From sequence record MZ234023.1: a DNA stretch of 39,899 nucleotides, one strand, 5' to 3'. The notes beneath the pieces are model-generated. The model searched no databases and was not told where the DNA came from. It saw nothing but the letters and a program-made list of their open reading frames with translations. Below are positions 3,001-21,600 of the stretch, in pieces (the first letter of the stretch is position 1; every line of letters begins with the position of its first letter). Origin of the DNA: Escherichia phage vB_EcoP-101120B2. Made by a program: the position numbers and the translations under genes.

Positions 3001-3303
3001 CTACCTCGTTCTCCTACAGAGAAGCCTGAGCGTGCCATCGCGTATGGTGCAGCTACAAGTGACCCTGTGATGAATGTTGTTGGTAACTTCTTGGAGCAGG
3101 TTCCAGCTTTCGGATATGCTGCTAACGTTGGCGCTTCGGCTTACAACTTGGCTGGCTACCTCAAGGCTGATACTCGTGTCAACGAGCGTGACTACATGAC
3201 CGGGATGTATAATACGTTCCGTGAACTGGTTCCGAACGACCCCATTACCCAGAAGCTGCTGCTTGGAACGTTTGAGGAGCAAGGCATCCACATCAAGGAC
3301 TAA
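1..3303 (+). CDS. Internal virion protein D (gp16-like), C-terminal ~1100 aa; 5' partial at window edge
   Basis: Long uninterrupted ORF. Translation aligns from recalled T7 gp16 residue ~230 onward (e.g. TRWNNHKWSREELDQIRN, VITGGSPQNLTELINLA, GVIGAGVDPLTYVP motifs). Position directly upstream of the tail fibre gene as in T7. Confidence 0.85.
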   Translation: MQEQEDRSTWFGFGAATEAEVKNSMVGVAIRAGQTEDSLDVIGDVFNPTRWNNHKWSREELDQIRNAGVLPQYYGVITGGSPQNLTELINLALENQKLDQEKAKAGTGAQLAAGVIGAGVDPLTYVPIAGQVGKGGKLVNKMFTVAAQSGALAGASEIARTSVAGGDAHVAEAILGGALFGGGMTAIADGLGRALGRNTNEFAGPATRLEARETARNVDGQDLSRLPIQEGEQTFSHQGVKFADVPNEPGSVRLEDGSILIGENPLNPKTRQVFDEVIEPERAAAGVNLGGLTEIGLKLLRSENPEIRGVAADLVRSPTGMQSGASGKIGTTASDVFERLRSVDHRFYNDIDDAVTEALKDPYFQTAFWRDSGAFRQDIYQRVSMAIEDGSGNLKAELTPGELKVYDLLKNQFDAKREMMENPAMFGRPDAQSIFPGSRFKGTYVPHVYSKQMKELYIKELGSPEALQEAIKKSWLTSYASRPEVKKRVDEALLEADPTLTPEGLAAAVDKYANDKAYGISHTEQFERSSVMEENINGLVGLENNSFLEARNLFDSDMSIVLPNGQTFSVNNLREWDMDKIVPAYNRRVNGDIAIMAGTGKTTKEMKDLVETMMNKAGDDGKLKGEVSTLRDTLKILTGRARRDGADDAAFATVMRTMTDLSFFAKNAYMGVQNLTEIGGMLARGNVRALLHGVPMFRDLAFRNKKVGASEIKDLHNVIFGKELDDSIRPSKQDVIDRLRSYSDLSRGTATALGTAKYYTGELAVRSPFTKVLNGTTNYLLDAGRQGFLSDIVEHSLTGSKRKFDDRWLKTAGISGEQWSGIKSLIRESVTRGPDGKYTIKDKKAFSQDPRAMDLWRMGDTIADETLLRPHKLSNMDAKAYGPLAKTVLQFKNFVIKSINGRTMRTFYNATKNNRAIDAALSTVMSMGLAGIYYMAQAHVKAYAMQDGRDRDYLKQALDPTMIGYAALSRSSHLGGPLGVANILGGIAGYEDTKMLRSSILPRSPTEKPERAIAYGAATSDPVMNVVGNFLEQVPAFGYAANVGASAYNLAGYLKADTRVNERDYMTGMYNTFRELVPNDPITQKLLLGTFEEQGIHIKD

Positions 3304-6789: not shown

Positions 6790-7233
6790 ATGCTCGAATT
6801 TTTAAAGAGAGCGGCTCCGTGGTTACTTGCAGCAGTGATGTTTGCTGGTGGCTACCACACCGCTAACAATAAGTGGGAGGCTAAGGTAAATGCAGAATAC
6901 ACCTCGAATCTTAAGGCATCGGAGGATACAAGGCTTGCTGTCCAAGCTGAAGTCAACAAAGTGTCCAAACGGTTTCAGGACGAAATGTCCTCGCTGGAAG
7001 GCAGCACTGACAGGATTATTGCTGACCTTCAGTCTGACAATAAGCGGCTGCGCATCCGAGTCAAACCTACGAGTGGAACCACGCAAAGTGACGGTCGATG
7101 CGTCATTGATGGTTACGCCGAACTTGACGAACGAGATGCTAAACGTCTTATCTCCATCGGACTGAAAGGGGACGCTTGGATTAAAGCACTACAGGATACT
7201 ATCCGCAAACTTCAACAAGACAAGGAGAAATGA
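6790..7233 (+). CDS. Rz-like i-spanin (gp18.5-like)
   Basis: 147-aa product beginning MLEFLKRAAPWLLAAVMFAGG (N-terminal TM) and ending with DAKRLISIGLKGDAWIKALQDTIRKLQ, like recalled T7 gp18.5. Confidence 0.85.
   Translation: MLEFLKRAAPWLLAAVMFAGGYHTANNKWEAKVNAEYTSNLKASEDTRLAVQAEVNKVSKRFQDEMSSLEGSTDRIIADLQSDNKRLRIRVKPTSGTTQSDGRCVIDGYAELDERDAKRLISIGLKGDAWIKALQDTIRKLQQDKEK
6890..7165 (+). CDS. Rz1-like o-spanin (gp18.7-like) embedded in the +1 frame of the Rz gene
   Basis: ORF nested in Rz. Product contains a lipobox-like LTISGC followed by ASES and SLMVTPNLTNEMLNV, matching recalled T7 gp18.7. Exact start uncertain. Confidence 0.7.
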   Translation: MQNTPRILRHRRIQGLLSKLKSTKCPNGFRTKCPRWKAALTGLLLTFSLTISGCASESNLRVEPRKVTVDASLMVTPNLTNEMLNVLSPSD

Positions 7234-7670
7234 TGCTCAGTGATTCGTATTTCTATGATGAGTCCAGTAAGTCTGGCCTGAAGTCCCTGCGTTCTGGTAA
7301 GGATGTGGGGTGTGTGGGAAACCACGGGTATTATCAGGTAGGAACTCGACGTCATGGACTCCTGCTGGCCCATAGAGTCGTCTGGGAGCTAACCAACGGT
7401 CCTATACCAGAAGGGATGGAGATTGACCATATCGACCGCTGCCGGACTAACAACAGGCTGGACAACCTCCGGCTAGTTACTTCAAGCGAGAACTCCTGCA
7501 ACACCTCAGGACATTCCGACTCAAAGACTGGAGTTAAGAACATATCGTTCCATCAGAATGGCTACGCTATCGAGGTCATGCGTAAGGGGGTCCGTATGCG
7601 AACAACACGTCCTACTTTAGAGGAGGCTATCTCTGTCCGGGACCTAATGCTGGAGGGACTCTATGTCTAA
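7230..7670 (+). CDS. HNH homing endonuclease with C-terminal AP2-like DNA-binding domain
   Basis: 146-aa ORF with ATGA overlap to Rz stop and 8-nt overlap with large terminase start. HNH-like motif [26 protein letters not shown]-terminal [33 protein letters not shown] resembles AP2 domains. No counterpart at this position in T7. Confidence 0.75.
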
Positions 7671-9429
7671 GAAAACACCTGCTGAAAGACAGGCTGAAAT
7701 GACCCAAAGGATGAGGGACGACTTCGTGTTCTTCATCTTCGTTCTCTGGAAAGCGCTGAGCCTTCCGGTTCCAACCAGATGTCAGATAGATATGTGTAAG
7801 AAGCTGGCTGCTGGCGATAACCGACGCTTCATCCTTCAGGCGTTCCGAGGTATTGGCAAATCGTTTCTGACCTGTGGTTTCGTGGTCTGGAAGCTATGGA
7901 ATAACCCAGACTTGAAGTTCATGATTGTGTCGGCCTCAAAGGAGCGAGCCGATGCTAACTCCATCTTCATCAAGCGAATCATCGACCTCATGCCTCAGCT
8001 TCAGGAACTCAAACCTAAGCAGGGACAGCGAGATGCGGTTATTAGCTTCGACGTGGGACCTGCCAAGCCAGACCACTCACCTTCGGTTAAGTCCGTTGGT
8101 ATCACTGGTCAGTTGACTGGTAGTCGTGCTGACATCCTGATTGCCGATGACGTGGAGGTTCCGAACAACTCAGCGACTCAGGCTGCACGAGACCGTCTAT
8201 CAGAGCTTGTGAAAGAGTTCGACGCTATCCTGAAGCCGGGAGGTACGATCATCTATCTGGGTACTCCTCAGAACGAGATGACCCTGTACCGTGAGCTGGA
8301 AGGTCGTGGGTACACCACTACTATCTGGCCCGCTCGTTATCCACGCGACAGGAAGGACTGGCAGTCTTACGGCGACCGTCTGGCTCCTATGCTTCAGGCA
8401 GAGCTGGAAGAGGACCCTGAGTCCTTCTACTGGCGTCCGACTGATGAAGTACGCTTCGATGATACGGACCTGAAGGAACGTGAGCTGTCCTACGGTAAAG
8501 CTGGCTTCGCTCTACAGTTCATGCTTAACCCGAACCTGAGTGATGCCGAGAAGTACCCTCTTAAGCTCCGTGACCTTATCGTAGCCGACTTGGACCCAGC
8601 GTCCAGCCCAATGGCCTACCAATGGTTGCCGAACCCTCAGAACAAGCGTGAGGACGTTCCTAACGTTGGACTCATGGGTGACTCGTACCACACGTATCAG
8701 ACTGTAGGTTCTGCCTTCAGCTCATACACCCAGAAGATTCTGGTCATTGACCCTAGTGGTCGTGGTAAGGATGAAACTGGATATGCGGTACTGTACCAGC
8801 TCAACGGCTACATCTTCGCTATGGAAGTTGGTGGCATGCGTGGTGGTTATGAATACTCTACGCTGGAAGCCTTGGCTAAGATTGGTCGTAAGTGGAGGGT
8901 AAACGAATACGTCATTGAGGGTAACTTCGGTGATGGTATGTACCTTGAGCTATTCAAGCCTGCATCGGCCCGTATCCATCCTGCGGCTGTAACTGAAGTG
9001 AAGAGTAAGGGTCAGAAAGAACTACGCATCTGTGACGTTCTGGAGCCTATCATGGGGTCTCACAGACTTATCGTTAACGCTGCTGCTATCGTCCAAGACT
9101 ACCAGACAGCCTCTGACAAGGATGGTGTTCGTAACCCTATCTACTCTCTATTCTATCAGATGACACGTATCTCTCGTGAGCGTGGAGCCTTGGCACACGA
9201 TGACCGACTTGATGCGCTGGCTATCGGTGTACAGTTCTTCGTTGAGTCGATGGCTAAGGATGCCAACAAAGGCGAACGTGAAGTCACTGAGGAATGGCTG
9301 GAGGAACAGATGGAGAACCCACGGAAAGGCTTCGAGTCCATCCACACTGAGTTCTGGGACAATGGGGTCCGGGTAACTCACGATACGGACGACGAGCTTG
9401 GACTAGGGTCATACGTTACGTTCCACTAG
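7663..9429 (+). CDS. Terminase large subunit (gp19-like)
   Basis: 588-aa ORF, size and sequence similar to recalled T7 gp19 (ATPase and nuclease regions). GGAGGG RBS. Confidence 0.9.
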
Positions 9430-11254: not shown

Positions 11255-11761
11255 ATGGAACGTAATGCTAACGCATACTATGAGCTGCTGGCTGCAACCG
11301 TTGAGGCATTTATCGAGCGTATTCAGTACGACCACCTGACTCAAGATGATGACTACAGCGATGCGCTGCATGAGGTCGTAGACGGTCAGGTTCCACACTA
11401 TTACCACGAGATTTTTACGGTGATGGCTGCTGATGGTATAGACCACGAGTTCGAAGACTCTGGGCTGATGCCTGAAACCAAGGACGTAACGCGTATCCTA
11501 CAAGCTCGCATCTATGAGGCGCTTTATAACGATGTGTCTAATAGCTTGGATGTAGTCTGGTTTGAGGATGAAGAGGCAGAAGAAGAGGATGAATATTGGG
11601 TAGTTGACGCTAAAACAGGCGCAATAATTGTGCAAGCTGTAGCTCTTGAGGTCGCTACTGCATGTACCAAGGTTAACTATGCGGCAGGTCGCCACCTGAA
11701 GGTGGAAGACATCAATGATAACGTAGTGTTCGACCCTGCGGCTGAGGACTGCGAGCGATGA
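11255..11761 (+). CDS. ocr: Ocr-like anti-restriction protein (gp0.3) with ~50-aa C-terminal extension
   Basis: GAGAGGA RBS. Residues ~30-105 ([44 protein letters not shown]) closely match recalled T7 Ocr, followed by an acidic stretch. The ORF continues to 168 aa, whereas T7 Ocr is 117 aa. Confidence 0.8.
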
Positions 11762-19047: not shown

Positions 19048-19206
19048 ATGACTGACGTAGAGAAGAAGTACATCGTGGAGCTTGAGGGTCGCATTCAGTC
19101 CTTCGAGGTTCCGGTGTACGCAAAGTCTCTTGAAGAGGCTACCCTGAAGTCCCAAGAGTATGAGGACGCTGGGTTTGTGGTCGGACGGATTCGCCCTGAG
19201 ACCTAA
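19048..19206 (+). CDS. gp2-like inhibitor of host RNA polymerase
   Basis: 52-aa ORF (below cutoff) with [25 protein letters not shown]...GFVVGRIRP aligns with recalled T7 Gp2 (SFEVPIYAETLDEA...GFEVTRVRP). Confidence 0.65.
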
Positions 19207-19224
19207 ACTATCACTGTAGGACAG
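19204..19224 (+). promoter_or_regulatory. Phage RNAP promoter (phi2.5 equivalent), one mismatch
   Basis: TAAACTATCACTGTAGGACAG, with TATAGG replaced by TGTAGG. Confidence 0.55.
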
Positions 19225-19263: not shown

Positions 19264-19962
19264 ATGGCTAAAGAGCAACTGAAGACTTTCACCACTCCGG
19301 TAGCTGGTATCGTTGAGCCTTACGCATGGCTGAACAAAGCAGACACCAAGTTTAATGAACGTGGTGAGCATAAGGTTAACCTGACATTCGACCTGAGCAA
19401 CCCGAAGGTCCGTAAGATGATTGATGTCTTACAGAAGATTCACGACGATGCGTATGCGAAAGCACTCGCAGACCACGAGAAGAACCCACCTCAGGTTCAG
19501 CGTGGCAAGAAGCCTATTGAACCACGAGAGGGCGACATGCCGTGGATTGAGAATGGGGACGGTACTGTTACCATGAAGTTTAAATGCTTTGCGTCTTACC
19601 TGAAAGACGGCAAGTCAGAGCCTATCGTATTACGGTTCTACGACACTGATGCTAAGTTAATCCGTGACGTCCCGAATATTGGCGCTGGCTCCAAACTGAA
19701 GGTCAAGTTCAAAGTCCTGCCGTTCAAGTGGAACGCTGCGACTGGTGCAAGCGTTAAGCTCCAGCTTGAGTCCTGCCGTCTGGTAGAACTGAAGGAGTGG
19801 AAAGGTGATGGTGCTGGTGGTGATGGTGGCTGGGGTGACGATGAAGACCTCGGTACTGGGTACAAAGCGTCAACCGATGGTGACTTCGGGTCTGATGACT
19901 TCGGTGACGATGGTTCCGAAGGTGGTGACGACTCCAGCTCTGGTGGCGATTACGACTTCTAA
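19264..19962 (+). CDS. Single-stranded DNA-binding protein (gp2.5)
   Basis: 232 aa, same length as T7 gp2.5. Shares GSKLKVKF, ASVKLQLES and an acidic C-terminal tail ending in F. Confidence 0.9.
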   Translation: MAKEQLKTFTTPVAGIVEPYAWLNKADTKFNERGEHKVNLTFDLSNPKVRKMIDVLQKIHDDAYAKALADHEKNPPQVQRGKKPIEPREGDMPWIENGDGTVTMKFKCFASYLKDGKSEPIVLRFYDTDAKLIRDVPNIGAGSKLKVKFKVLPFKWNAATGASVKLQLESCRLVELKEWKGDGAGGDGGWGDDEDLGTGYKASTDGDFGSDDFGDDGSEGGDDSSSGGDYDF

Positions 19963-20417
19963 TGGCCCAATGGTCTGCAAAACGGGGGCACTCTGTGGGT
20001 GCCTACCGCTCTGGACTTGAAGCCAAGAACCAGCAGTGGCTGGAACAGAACGGCGTCAAAGCGGAGTACGAAAGCCATTATATCAACTATGTGATTCCGG
20101 CTTCCGACCACAAGTACACACCAGATTTTATCCTTCCCAACGGTATCATCGTGGAGACCAAAGGTATCTTCGATAGTGATGACCGTAAGAAGCACCTTCT
20201 GGTACGAGAACAGCACCCAGAGTTAGACATCCGGTTCGTGTTCTCAAGTTCACGCTCCAAGCTATACAAAGGGTCCCCGACCACGTATGGCGCATGGTGC
20301 GAAAAGAACGGCTTTAAGTTTGCCGACAAGTTTATCCCTGTTGAGTGGCTGCGAGAGGCGACTGTACGTCTGCCTTCAGGTATACTCATTCCCAAGAAGA
20401 AAGGAGTTAAGAAATGA
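19962..20417 (+). CDS. Endonuclease I, Holliday junction resolvase (gp3)
   Basis: YTPDFILPNGIIVETKG, SDDRKKHLLVREQHPELDIRFVFSSSRSKLYKGSPTTYG match recalled T7 gp3. Confidence 0.9.
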   Translation: MAQWSAKRGHSVGAYRSGLEAKNQQWLEQNGVKAEYESHYINYVIPASDHKYTPDFILPNGIIVETKGIFDSDDRKKHLLVREQHPELDIRFVFSSSRSKLYKGSPTTYGAWCEKNGFKFADKFIPVEWLREATVRLPSGILIPKKKGVKK

Positions 20418-20905
20418 GCCAGAAGTTTAAACTGTTAGTAGATATATATGGTTGGCCTCGTGGGACTATCGTTACCAAGTGTAAGAAGGACCCAGCTCCG
20501 TTGCCTACCCTTACCCTAGTTGAGTGCCAGACTCCAGGCAAATACAAACATGGGCCTAACGGCTTCAATACTCAGCCTAAGGGCATGTGGGGAGCATGGA
20601 TTGCTGACAGATATCTTGAGGAAATCAAACCAGAAGAGGAACTCACTGGTGTACAGACCACTCAAGTCCTTCCAGCTTCGAGCGTACCTCCTGTGACAGT
20701 GAAACGCGAAGTCCTGACCATCGACAAGATTGGTGTAGGCCAGACGTTCATCGTCCATGGAAAGCCTGAAGAAGTTTACGTGAAGATTAGCAACTCACAC
20801 GTCTTCAACCATAAGCATCTCCAGATGCACACCACGGACGCACAACGCTTCACCCAGCACCTGAATCTGGTTGTCGTAGAATTGGTGGTGTACAATGGTA
20901 AGTAA
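20414..20905 (+). CDS. Hypothetical protein inserted between genes 3 and 3.5
   Basis: 163-aa ORF with AAAGGAG RBS. ATGA overlap with the gene 3 stop and 11-nt overlap with the lysozyme start. No homolog recognised; T7 has no gene here. Confidence 0.6.
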   Translation: MSQKFKLLVDIYGWPRGTIVTKCKKDPAPLPTLTLVECQTPGKYKHGPNGFNTQPKGMWGAWIADRYLEEIKPEEELTGVQTTQVLPASSVPPVTVKREVLTIDKIGVGQTFIVHGKPEEVYVKISNSHVFNHKHLQMHTTDAQRFTQHLNLVVVELVVYNGK

Positions 20906-21353
20906 GGTACAGTTCAATCCACGGTCCCGGACCGACGCTATCTTCGTTCACTGTTCGGCTACCAAGCCAGAGATGGACATCGGGGTAGAGACCATCCGTA
21001 TGTGGCACAAGCAGCAAGGCTGGCTGGACGTAGGCTACCACTTTATCATCAAGCGCGATGGTACTGTGGAAGAGGGACGCCCTGTCAATGTCGTAGGGTC
21101 ACACGTTAAGGACTGGAACTCACGGTCTGTAGGCGTCTGCCTTGTAGGTGGAATTGACGCTAAGGGCAAGTTTGAAGCTAACTTCACTCCAGCCCAGATG
21201 AACTCCCTGCGCAACAAGCTGGCTGACCTGAAGGACTTGTATCCTCAGGCAGAAATCAAGGCTCACCACGATGTAGCACCAAAGGCTTGCCCAAGTTTCG
21301 ACTTGCAGCGCTGGCTTAACACTAACGAACTGGTCACTTCCGACCGAGGCTAA
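20895..21353 (+). CDS. Lysozyme, N-acetylmuramoyl-L-alanine amidase (gp3.5)
   Basis: AIFVHCSATKP, WLDVGYHFIIKRDGTVEEGR, HHDVAPKACPSFDL and C-terminal ELVTSDRG match recalled T7 gp3.5. Confidence 0.9.
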   Translation: MVSKVQFNPRSRTDAIFVHCSATKPEMDIGVETIRMWHKQQGWLDVGYHFIIKRDGTVEEGRPVNVVGSHVKDWNSRSVGVCLVGGIDAKGKFEANFTPAQMNSLRNKLADLKDLYPQAEIKAHHDVAPKACPSFDLQRWLNTNELVTSDRG

Positions 21354-21367
21354 TAAGGAGAATTAAC

Positions 21368-21580
21368 ATGATTAAACTTATTGAATTTCTGGGTCGTCTG
21401 GTTGTGCGTGGCTATTCTCGTGCTGCGAGTGTGGAACGAAAAGTCGCATCTGCTGCGGCTAAAGGTGCGGAAGCGGCTGCTGCGGAAGCGGATAGTCTGC
21501 GCATCAAGTCTCTGGACGCTGGCCTACGTGCCAAAGGTCTTGACAAGAAAGCCGAGCAACTGAAAGGCTTCTTCAGCTAA
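21368..21580 (+). CDS. Hypothetical protein, Ala/Lys-rich
   Basis: 70-aa ORF with TAAGGAG RBS. Confidence 0.5.
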   Translation: MIKLIEFLGRLVVRGYSRAASVERKVASAAAKGAEAAAAEADSLRIKSLDAGLRAKGLDKKAEQLKGFFS

Positions 21581-21600
21581 ACTATCACCTTAGGGATGAG
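21578..21600 (+). promoter_or_regulatory. Degenerate phage promoter-like sequence
   Basis: TAAACTATCACCTTAGGGATGAG has two mismatches in the CACTATAGG core. Followed by a GGGATGAGACC/GGTCTTGTCCC hairpin and a T-rich run. Confidence 0.3.

Follow-up and report, generated by a model that had tools for sequence, protein, structure and literature searches.

In the genome of Escherichia phage vB_EcoP-101120B2, an open reading frame (ORF) encoding 163 amino acids (aa) lies between the genes for endonuclease I (gene 3) and the amidase/lysozyme (gene 3.5). The locus raises the question of whether this ORF is a gene peculiar to the phage, inserted at the junction, and of what its product might do. The window, meaning the whole analysed stretch of 39,899 nucleotides (sequence record MZ234023.1), was found to be a circularly permuted Kayfunavirus genome. 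A sequence-only reading had described the ORF as an unrecognised gene with a strong ribosome-binding site (RBS), wedged between two genes that are adjacent in T7. The two T7 genes are indeed contiguous without this ORF: the end of gene 3 and the start of gene 3.5 are one base, 10706, with nothing between them, and the ORF, called gene 3.2 below, is therefore extra relative to T7.

Position, junctions and identity of gene 3.2

The features of the locus and its surroundings, in positions of the window, are as follows.

19206–19220, + strand: promoter-like site AACTATCACTGTAGG, upstream of gene 2.5, with 1 mismatch to the 11-copy consensus
19962–20417, + strand: gene 3, endonuclease I (Pfam Phage_endo_I, E 8.6e-82)
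20401–20406, + strand: Shine-Dalgarno sequence AAGGAG, spaced by 7 nt from the gene 3.2 ATG
20414–20905, + strand: gene 3.2 coding sequence (PHROG 16385, E 2.6e-91)
20414–20629, + strand: type-A N-terminal module, residues 1–72, predicted to fold as an SH3 beta-barrel; 17 hypervariable loop positions on an invariant scaffold
20418–20660, + strand: exchangeable cassette of 243 nt, the stretch swapped in relatives with other N-modules
20630–20692, + strand: linker, residues 73–93, predicted disordered
20693–20902, + strand: constant C-terminal domain, residues 94–163, predicted small all-beta barrel with an invariant motif
20895–21353, + strand: gene 3.5, amidase/lysozyme (Pfam Amidase_2, E 7.7e-17)
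21580–21594, + strand: next phage promoter-like site, before gene 4, with 2 mismatches

Gene 3.2 (20414–20905, + strand) starts with ATG and encodes a protein, gp3.2, of 163 aa (18.4 kDa, pI 9.0). No hydrophobic segment was found along these 163 aa, so the protein is expected to be cytoplasmic. The arrangement described by the sequence-only reading was borne out in each part: the neighbours carry the Phage_endo_I and Amidase_2 domains, the strong RBS (AAGGAG) stands 7 nt ahead of the ATG, and the gene overlaps both neighbours, by ATGA with gene 3 and by 11 nt with the start of gene 3.5. At the upstream junction, the 3' end of gene 3 harbours the RBS of gene 3.2, and the gene 3 stop codon (TGA, 20415–20417) shares the ATGA with the gene 3.2 start. 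At the downstream junction, the gene 3.5 ATG (20895) is located 11 nt upstream of the gene 3.2 stop (TAA, 20903–20905), and the RBS of gene 3.5 (GGTGGTG) and its start sit inside the final codons of gene 3.2 (ELVVYNGK). The codons at 20884–20905 are thus under dual constraint, which partly explains the conservation of the low-confidence C-terminal tail of gp3.2. In every relative with a located ORF, the ATGA junction was the same or nearly so and was preceded by an AAAGGAG-type RBS; the AAAGGAG was exact in all of them except the distant locus of Providencia phage PSTCR2, which has TAAAGGAG at a longer spacing.

The sequence AACTATCACTATAGG, a probable core of the phage RNA polymerase promoter, occurred in 11 + strand copies in the window (at 3303, 9528, 13053, 16374, 18241, 19206, 21580, 27333, 30154, 31134 and 35916) against 0.95 expected. 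The site at 19206–19220 is the probable start of a transcription unit that runs through genes 2.5, 3, 3.2, 3.5 and 3.7. Inside gene 3.2, neither a promoter nor a convincing terminator was found. Since the nearest promoter copies are at 19206 and 21580, these five genes look like one class II transcription unit, in which gene 3.2 would be transcribed together with genes of DNA metabolism.

The gene proved not to be peculiar to this genome. Its region was 100% identical to that of Escherichia phage vB_EcoP-101120B1-2 (MZ234022) and about 90% identical to those of K1F and EcoDS1, in whose records the ORF has long been annotated as gene 3.2 ("gp3.2 protein", with no function given). The gp3.2 proteins of K1F (YP_424930) and EcoDS1 (ACF15799), with 77–86% identity, represent the same gene, in the same place between genes 3 and 3.5 and with the same overlaps; the window allele differs from them mainly at hypervariable loop positions. 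The protein matched PHROG 16385 over its full length (residues 1–163 against profile positions 1–157 of 157, E 2.6e-91), and its C-terminal 70 aa (residues 94–163) matched PHROG 15211 (E 3.1e-39); both families are catalogued as of unknown function. A total of 254 gp3.2 homologues were collected, mostly of 155–163 aa, many of them on contigs of about 39–41 kb, and the ORF was present in more than 200 phage records. When the gene 3/3.5 junction was compared in relatives, as the sequence-only reading had proposed, gene 3.2 recurred there across Kayfunavirus, Caroctavirus CR8 and an unclassified Providencia phage. By its sequence, gene 3.2 is thus an already known gene of the K1F-like phages, catalogued and uncharacterised.

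The earlier impression that the product has no recognisable features held for sequence searches. No match to gp3.2 was obtained in Pfam (E up to 10; its models include ocr and several Acr families), in NCBIfam, among the PADLOC defence-protein families (0 families at E up to 1) or in PDB sequence searches with both gp3.2 profiles. A profile search of 1.84 billion representatives returned 18 clusters at 50% identity, all of them gp3.2-like or fragments, with no distant characterised relative. Nor did gp3.2 turn out to be a known T7 product: there was no T7 homologue in that search and no T7 or T3 protein among the tblastn matches listed. In the searchable literature (gp3.2, K1F, Kayfunavirus, accessory-gene screens), no functional data on gp3.2 were found. 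At the fold level, the same impression did not hold.

Domain anatomy and the N-terminal modules

Structure prediction, which had been suggested as a check, yielded two SH3-like beta-barrels joined by a flexible linker. Residues 1–72 were predicted with confidence as a compact SH3-fold barrel (AF2) that has the five strands of an SH3 barrel in the model, and they contain an invariant scaffold (GWP.GT, C23, DP.P, LVE, G.YKHG, TQP.GMWGAW). The linker (residues 73–93) begins with an acidic PEEEL and continues as a Pro/Ser-rich VLPASSVPPV; its pI is 4.05, the pLDDT is below 50 at residues 75–98, and the constant region takes in its 3' part. Residues 94–163 were predicted as a second barrel, weakly SH3-like, with an invariant polar motif (G..F...Y...SNSH.FN....QMH.T...RF), the core of which, in gp3.2 SNSHVFN..QMHTT..RF, was unvarying in alignments A2 and A3. 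Both domains are basic (pI 9.2–9.4).

Fold searches of the PDB retrieved generic SH3-like barrels only. The neighbours included KOW/EF-P, ribosomal L2, Tudor and Hpy99I DNA-binding barrels, as well as the SH3b-containing LytB and, from NlpC/P60 cell-wall hydrolases, the beta half; in BFVD, only the family itself and uncharacterised phage proteins of 70–85 aa were found. Among the closest known small-barrel systems are FeoA, the C-terminal domain of DtxR-IdeR, EF-P domain I (KOW) and Tudor. With the SH3 domains of spectrin, Sla1, STAC3 and the Src family, gp3.2 shares only the predicted fold, at 6–18% identity and without Pfam membership; Pfam SH3_1, SH3_2 and SH3_9 gave no profile match at E up to 10. 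For SH3b and NlpC-P60, gp3.2 showed neither a Pfam match nor the Cys-His-His/Asn triad. An NlpC/P60 peptidase was rejected as a candidate: the similarity to the beta half is weak and lacks the catalytic Cys, a residue missing from family members that consist of the C-domain only. As predicted, neither domain resembles a catalytic fold, and gp3.2 is modelled as a soluble, basic, two-domain protein of small SH3-like beta-barrels.

The two domains differ in their distribution. By tblastn, the C-domain was found in 220 phage records, 54 of which matched at least 80% of the query and hence the type-A module too, while the remaining records covered only the C-terminal 43–66% of gp3.2. The C-domain alone makes up the 74-aa gp3.2 encoded by Cronobacter phage Dev2, by the Citrobacter SH phages and by many phages of Salmonella, Shigella and Enterobacter. 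The Dev2 and Citrobacter SH form (PHROG 15211) corresponds to residues 94–163 of the window protein, with 79% identity; it keeps the ATGA start after gene 3 and the amidase overlap and is entirely without N-module and linker, which makes the C-domain an autonomous core. These comparisons show the C-terminal predicted barrel of about 70 aa to be the constant core of the family, apparently sufficient alone in many phages. Separate initiation of the C-domain from within the window gene was rejected on inspection of the sequence, as no RBS precedes it and the upstream sequence is CCTCC.

Ahead of the C-domain, at least nine types of N-module (labelled A to J) were distinguished. By hhalign, the module cores were unrelated to one another and to the C-domain, save for a short N-terminal match between F and G; N-modules as diverged duplicates detectable in sequence were thereby excluded. 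When nine other module types and one double-module protein (P0096) were scanned against Pfam and PHROG, only the two gp3.2 PHROGs were matched. The type of N-module does not follow the host genus. Two modules are joined in some proteins (A+D in P0096 and P0116; A+C in P0110), and natural in-frame deletions of the N-module occur in type-A genes (P0122, P0160, P0166). Outside gp3.2, a search for module D retrieved only a split-off module at the same locus (P0201); this stand-alone ORF of 98 aa is present in one lineage (three contigs), and its existence indicates that a module can occur without the C-domain. Taken together, the loci compared show the N-module to be an accessory cassette that can be deleted, stacked or split off as an ORF of its own.

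On a Logan contig of 40,065 bp (SRR30884456; L056:2052–3268), gene 3 is followed by a D-module ORF and then by a complete gene 3.2 with a C-type module. The 98-aa D-module ORF closes with a repeated copy of the gene 3 tail and RBS, after which the second, complete gene 3.2 begins. The tandem junction lies at the microhomology GTGACTGTA, which is common to the linker (P-V-T-V) and the gene 3 tail (T-V-R-L-P). From its sequence, this tandem locus is a direct footprint of the addition of a module.

A distant member, a gp3.2 of 152 aa in Providencia phage PSTCR2 (L004:2246–3278), belongs to a divergent C-domain subfamily with the motif LYLVMSNSHVFNLT..QMHTT. Between it and the endolysin gene lie two further small hypothetical genes; in some lineages, the number of accessory genes at the junction thus reaches three.

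Exchange of the cassette, selection and loop variability

Homology to loci with other modules ended at 20417–20427 and resumed at 20661 (types B, C and D) or at 20713/4 (type E and C-only). Within these limits, the cassette at 20418–20660 was 17–19% divergent in 10 of the 12 close relatives compared, in which gene 3, the C-domain and often gene 3.5 differed by 0–4%; other relatives had an identical cassette, yet a gene 3.5 divergent by 8%. Synonymous divergence of the N- and C-terminal parts was discordant in both directions (0.345 N versus 0.065 C for the pair L008/L030; 0.021 N versus 0.255 C for L006/L007), and the GC3 of the cassette was 0.476 against 0.59–0.62 in the neighbours. The breakpoints, the island of divergence, the discordant synonymous divergence and the GC3 point to recombinational exchange between conserved flanks; the cassette has been exchanged by recombination between the gene 3 tail with the RBS on one side and the linker and C-domain on the other. 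The description of gene 3.2 as "inserted" has to be divided accordingly: the N-terminal cassette of 243 nt (20418–20660) alone acts as an insertion, whereas the whole gene is widespread at the junction. This modular architecture, a constant barrel with a recombining cassette of at least nine modules, was not found described in the searchable literature.

Selection was estimated from comparisons of 12 to 22 type-A genes. Purifying selection on gene 3.2 was measured at dS 0.46–1.16. The C-terminal half of gp3.2 (dS 0.46, dN 0.044, omega about 0.10) was close to gene 3 (dS 0.46, dN 0.049, omega about 0.11, figures that come from only 4 of 12 type-A loci) and to gene 3.5 (dS 0.36, dN 0.065, omega about 0.18). 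By these measures, it evolves indistinguishably from its essential neighbour genes. The scaffold of the N-terminal module (55 codons) had an omega of 0.24.

Among 110 type-A proteins, at least about 70% identical overall, 17 positions had an entropy of at least 2 bits and up to 17 different residues (9–11, 16, 28, 30, 31, 33, 39, 43, 49, 51, 64–67 and 72). They lie between invariant residues (G13, W14, P15, G17, T18, C23, D26, P27, P29, L35, V36 and E37; G42, Y44, K45, H46, G47, Q54, P55, G57, M58, W59, G60, A61 and W62), mostly in predicted loops or at strand ends. Their omega was 0.96 in pairwise comparison (pN/pS) and 1.24 when tree-based, against 0.24 for the scaffold; positive selection at these sites, a class picked post hoc for its variability, was not significant (P = 0.13). 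Diversifying selection at the loop sites is plausible from these values, and relaxed constraint accounts for them equally well. By eye, other module types also appear to combine a conserved scaffold with variable positions. Diversification of the type produced by diversity-generating retroelements was not supported, as the window holds no second copy of 20414–20660 that could serve as a template repeat. The window ORFs that were scanned or mapped were T7-like.

Possible functions of gp3.2

Our main reading, to which we give a probability of roughly 0.4, is that gp3.2 is a cytoplasmic binding protein with a conserved barrel for a core task and a variable module engaged in phage–host conflict. 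With no enzyme-like fold predicted, gp3.2 would act by binding. Since the C-domain is nearly invariant over phages of many enterobacterial genera, the constant barrel would dock on a partner that is either phage-encoded or highly conserved across the Enterobacterales hosts. The turnover of the N-modules and the variability of their loops suggest a variable partner, and the module may independently recognise a target that varies between strains; phage–host conflict is the most economical reading of these two properties. The locus would accordingly be a slot for host-conflict functions, such as counter-defence, host takeover or escape from recognition. Early and middle genes of T7-group phages encode the small, non-enzymatic binders Ocr, gp2, gp1.2, gp5.5 and gp5.9. 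The likeness of gp3.2 to them would be one of function, no relationship in sequence or fold having been found, and to our knowledge none of them combines a constant domain with an exchangeable hypervariable module.

Several points count against a role in host conflict. The SH3-like fold is a generic one, shared by proteins that bind nucleic acids or the cell wall; the basic pI of both domains (9.2–9.4) fits nucleic-acid binding; and N-module type is independent of host genus. In addition, so tight a translational coupling to endonuclease I and lysozyme might instead reflect a housekeeping function. As a housekeeping factor of DNA metabolism or transcription, gp3.2 would bind a phage protein or nucleic acid through its conserved barrel, with the N-module as a tolerated decoration; candidate partners are endonuclease I, the lysozyme/RNA polymerase complex, the replisome, or nucleic acid itself, as with KOW, Tudor and Sm-like barrels. 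Translational coupling to genes 3 and 3.5 in every relative with a located ORF, membership of the 2.5-3-3.2-3.5 unit, conservation of the C-domain on a par with gp3 (4 loci) and gp3.5, the basic charge of both barrels and the KOW/EF-P, ribosomal L2, Tudor and Hpy99I neighbours in the fold searches all agree with such a factor. However, the same pathways operate in T7, T3 and other Studiervirinae in the absence of gp3.2, the constraint on the N scaffold (omega 0.24) means that the module is no mere decoration, and cassette turnover with hypervariable loops would be unusual for a protein of this kind. We regard this explanation as possible, if on balance unlikely.

The repeated natural deletion of the cassette (P0122, P0160 and P0166), its absence from many phages, its atypical GC3 and the nearly neutral evolution of its hypervariable sites would also be expected if only the C-domain were functional, and the cassette were in-frame filler, selfish or neutral, that rides on the translation signals of gene 3.2 with no benefit to the phage. 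Filler of this kind is difficult to reconcile with 55 scaffold codons at omega 0.24, many invariant residues and a confident, compact predicted fold, and the cassette has no homing-endonuclease-like or other mobility function; the explanation is therefore considered improbable. Still less probable is an accessory role in lysis, in which gp3.2 would bind the envelope in the manner of SH3b or PlyCB, as a partner of the amidase encoded downstream: the overlap with the amidase start and the fold matches to LytB (SH3b) and the NlpC/P60 beta half are in its favour, but the SH3b signature is absent and such a role gives no reason for the diversity of modules. That the ORF is spurious, for which the sole support was the absence of annotation-grade homology, can be dismissed, as purifying selection, the conserved RBS, translational coupling, presence in more than 200 genomes and confident predicted folds all contradict it, and the selection analysis has already refuted it.

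The reading of gp3.2 as a binding protein in phage–host conflict has a stronger form, in which the gene 3/3.5 junction is a dedicated slot. There, the invariant barrel would serve as a fixed platform for both expression and docking of at least nine unrelated, loop-hypervariable modules that are swapped, stacked or split by recombination. We hold this form to be rather doubtful; if true, T7-like phages would possess a modular system of counter-defence or host targeting that has not been described before. Gene 3.2 itself is ordinary for the genus, being conserved, uncharacterised and already in GenBank and the PHROGs; the interest lies in its architecture, a constant core with an exchangeable hypervariable cassette at a fixed and putatively highly expressed locus. 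The invariant SNSHVFN..QMHTT barrel probably marks a conserved interaction that T7 does without. Kayfunavirus phages such as K1F, LM33_P1, CLB_P1 and Bas105 are used in therapy and engineering. If the variable module decides success on particular strains, by counter-defence or evasion, it would be a compact, easily swapped determinant of post-adsorption host range and a good starting point in the search for new phage–host conflict proteins. The locus is a reasonable candidate for work on host range and counter-defence in the Kayfunavirus phages used therapeutically.

Some further observations were made in the window and its relatives. At the junction of genes 2.5 and 3 (19962), the window has no intervening gene, while in two relatives these genes are separated by an ORF of about 450 nt for an HNH-type endonuclease, like T7 gene 2.8 (L006:1119–1568 and L056:1633–2067), and in two others by an insertion of similar size (L020 and L038); this junction is thus a presence/absence polymorphism that adjoins the gene 3.2 cassette. 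Elsewhere in the window, an ORF of 146 aa resembling HNH_3 homing endonucleases (7230–7670, + strand; Pfam E 1.8e-21) overlaps both an ORF of 147 aa (6790–7233) and one of 588 aa (7663–9429), which by position correspond to T7 gene 18.5 and the large terminase (T7 gene 19), respectively. A homologue of the DNA mimic Ocr, of 168 aa, is encoded at 11255–11761 (+ strand); Pfam ocr covers its residues 8–95 only, and its C-terminal extension of about 70 aa had no match. In phage vB_EcoP-22664BS1 (MZ234009; L044:1083–1192), gene 3.5 contains a perfect tandem duplication of 55 bp, as a result of which the deposited annotation calls a truncated endolysin; the duplication is either a genuine frameshifting event or an assembly artefact.
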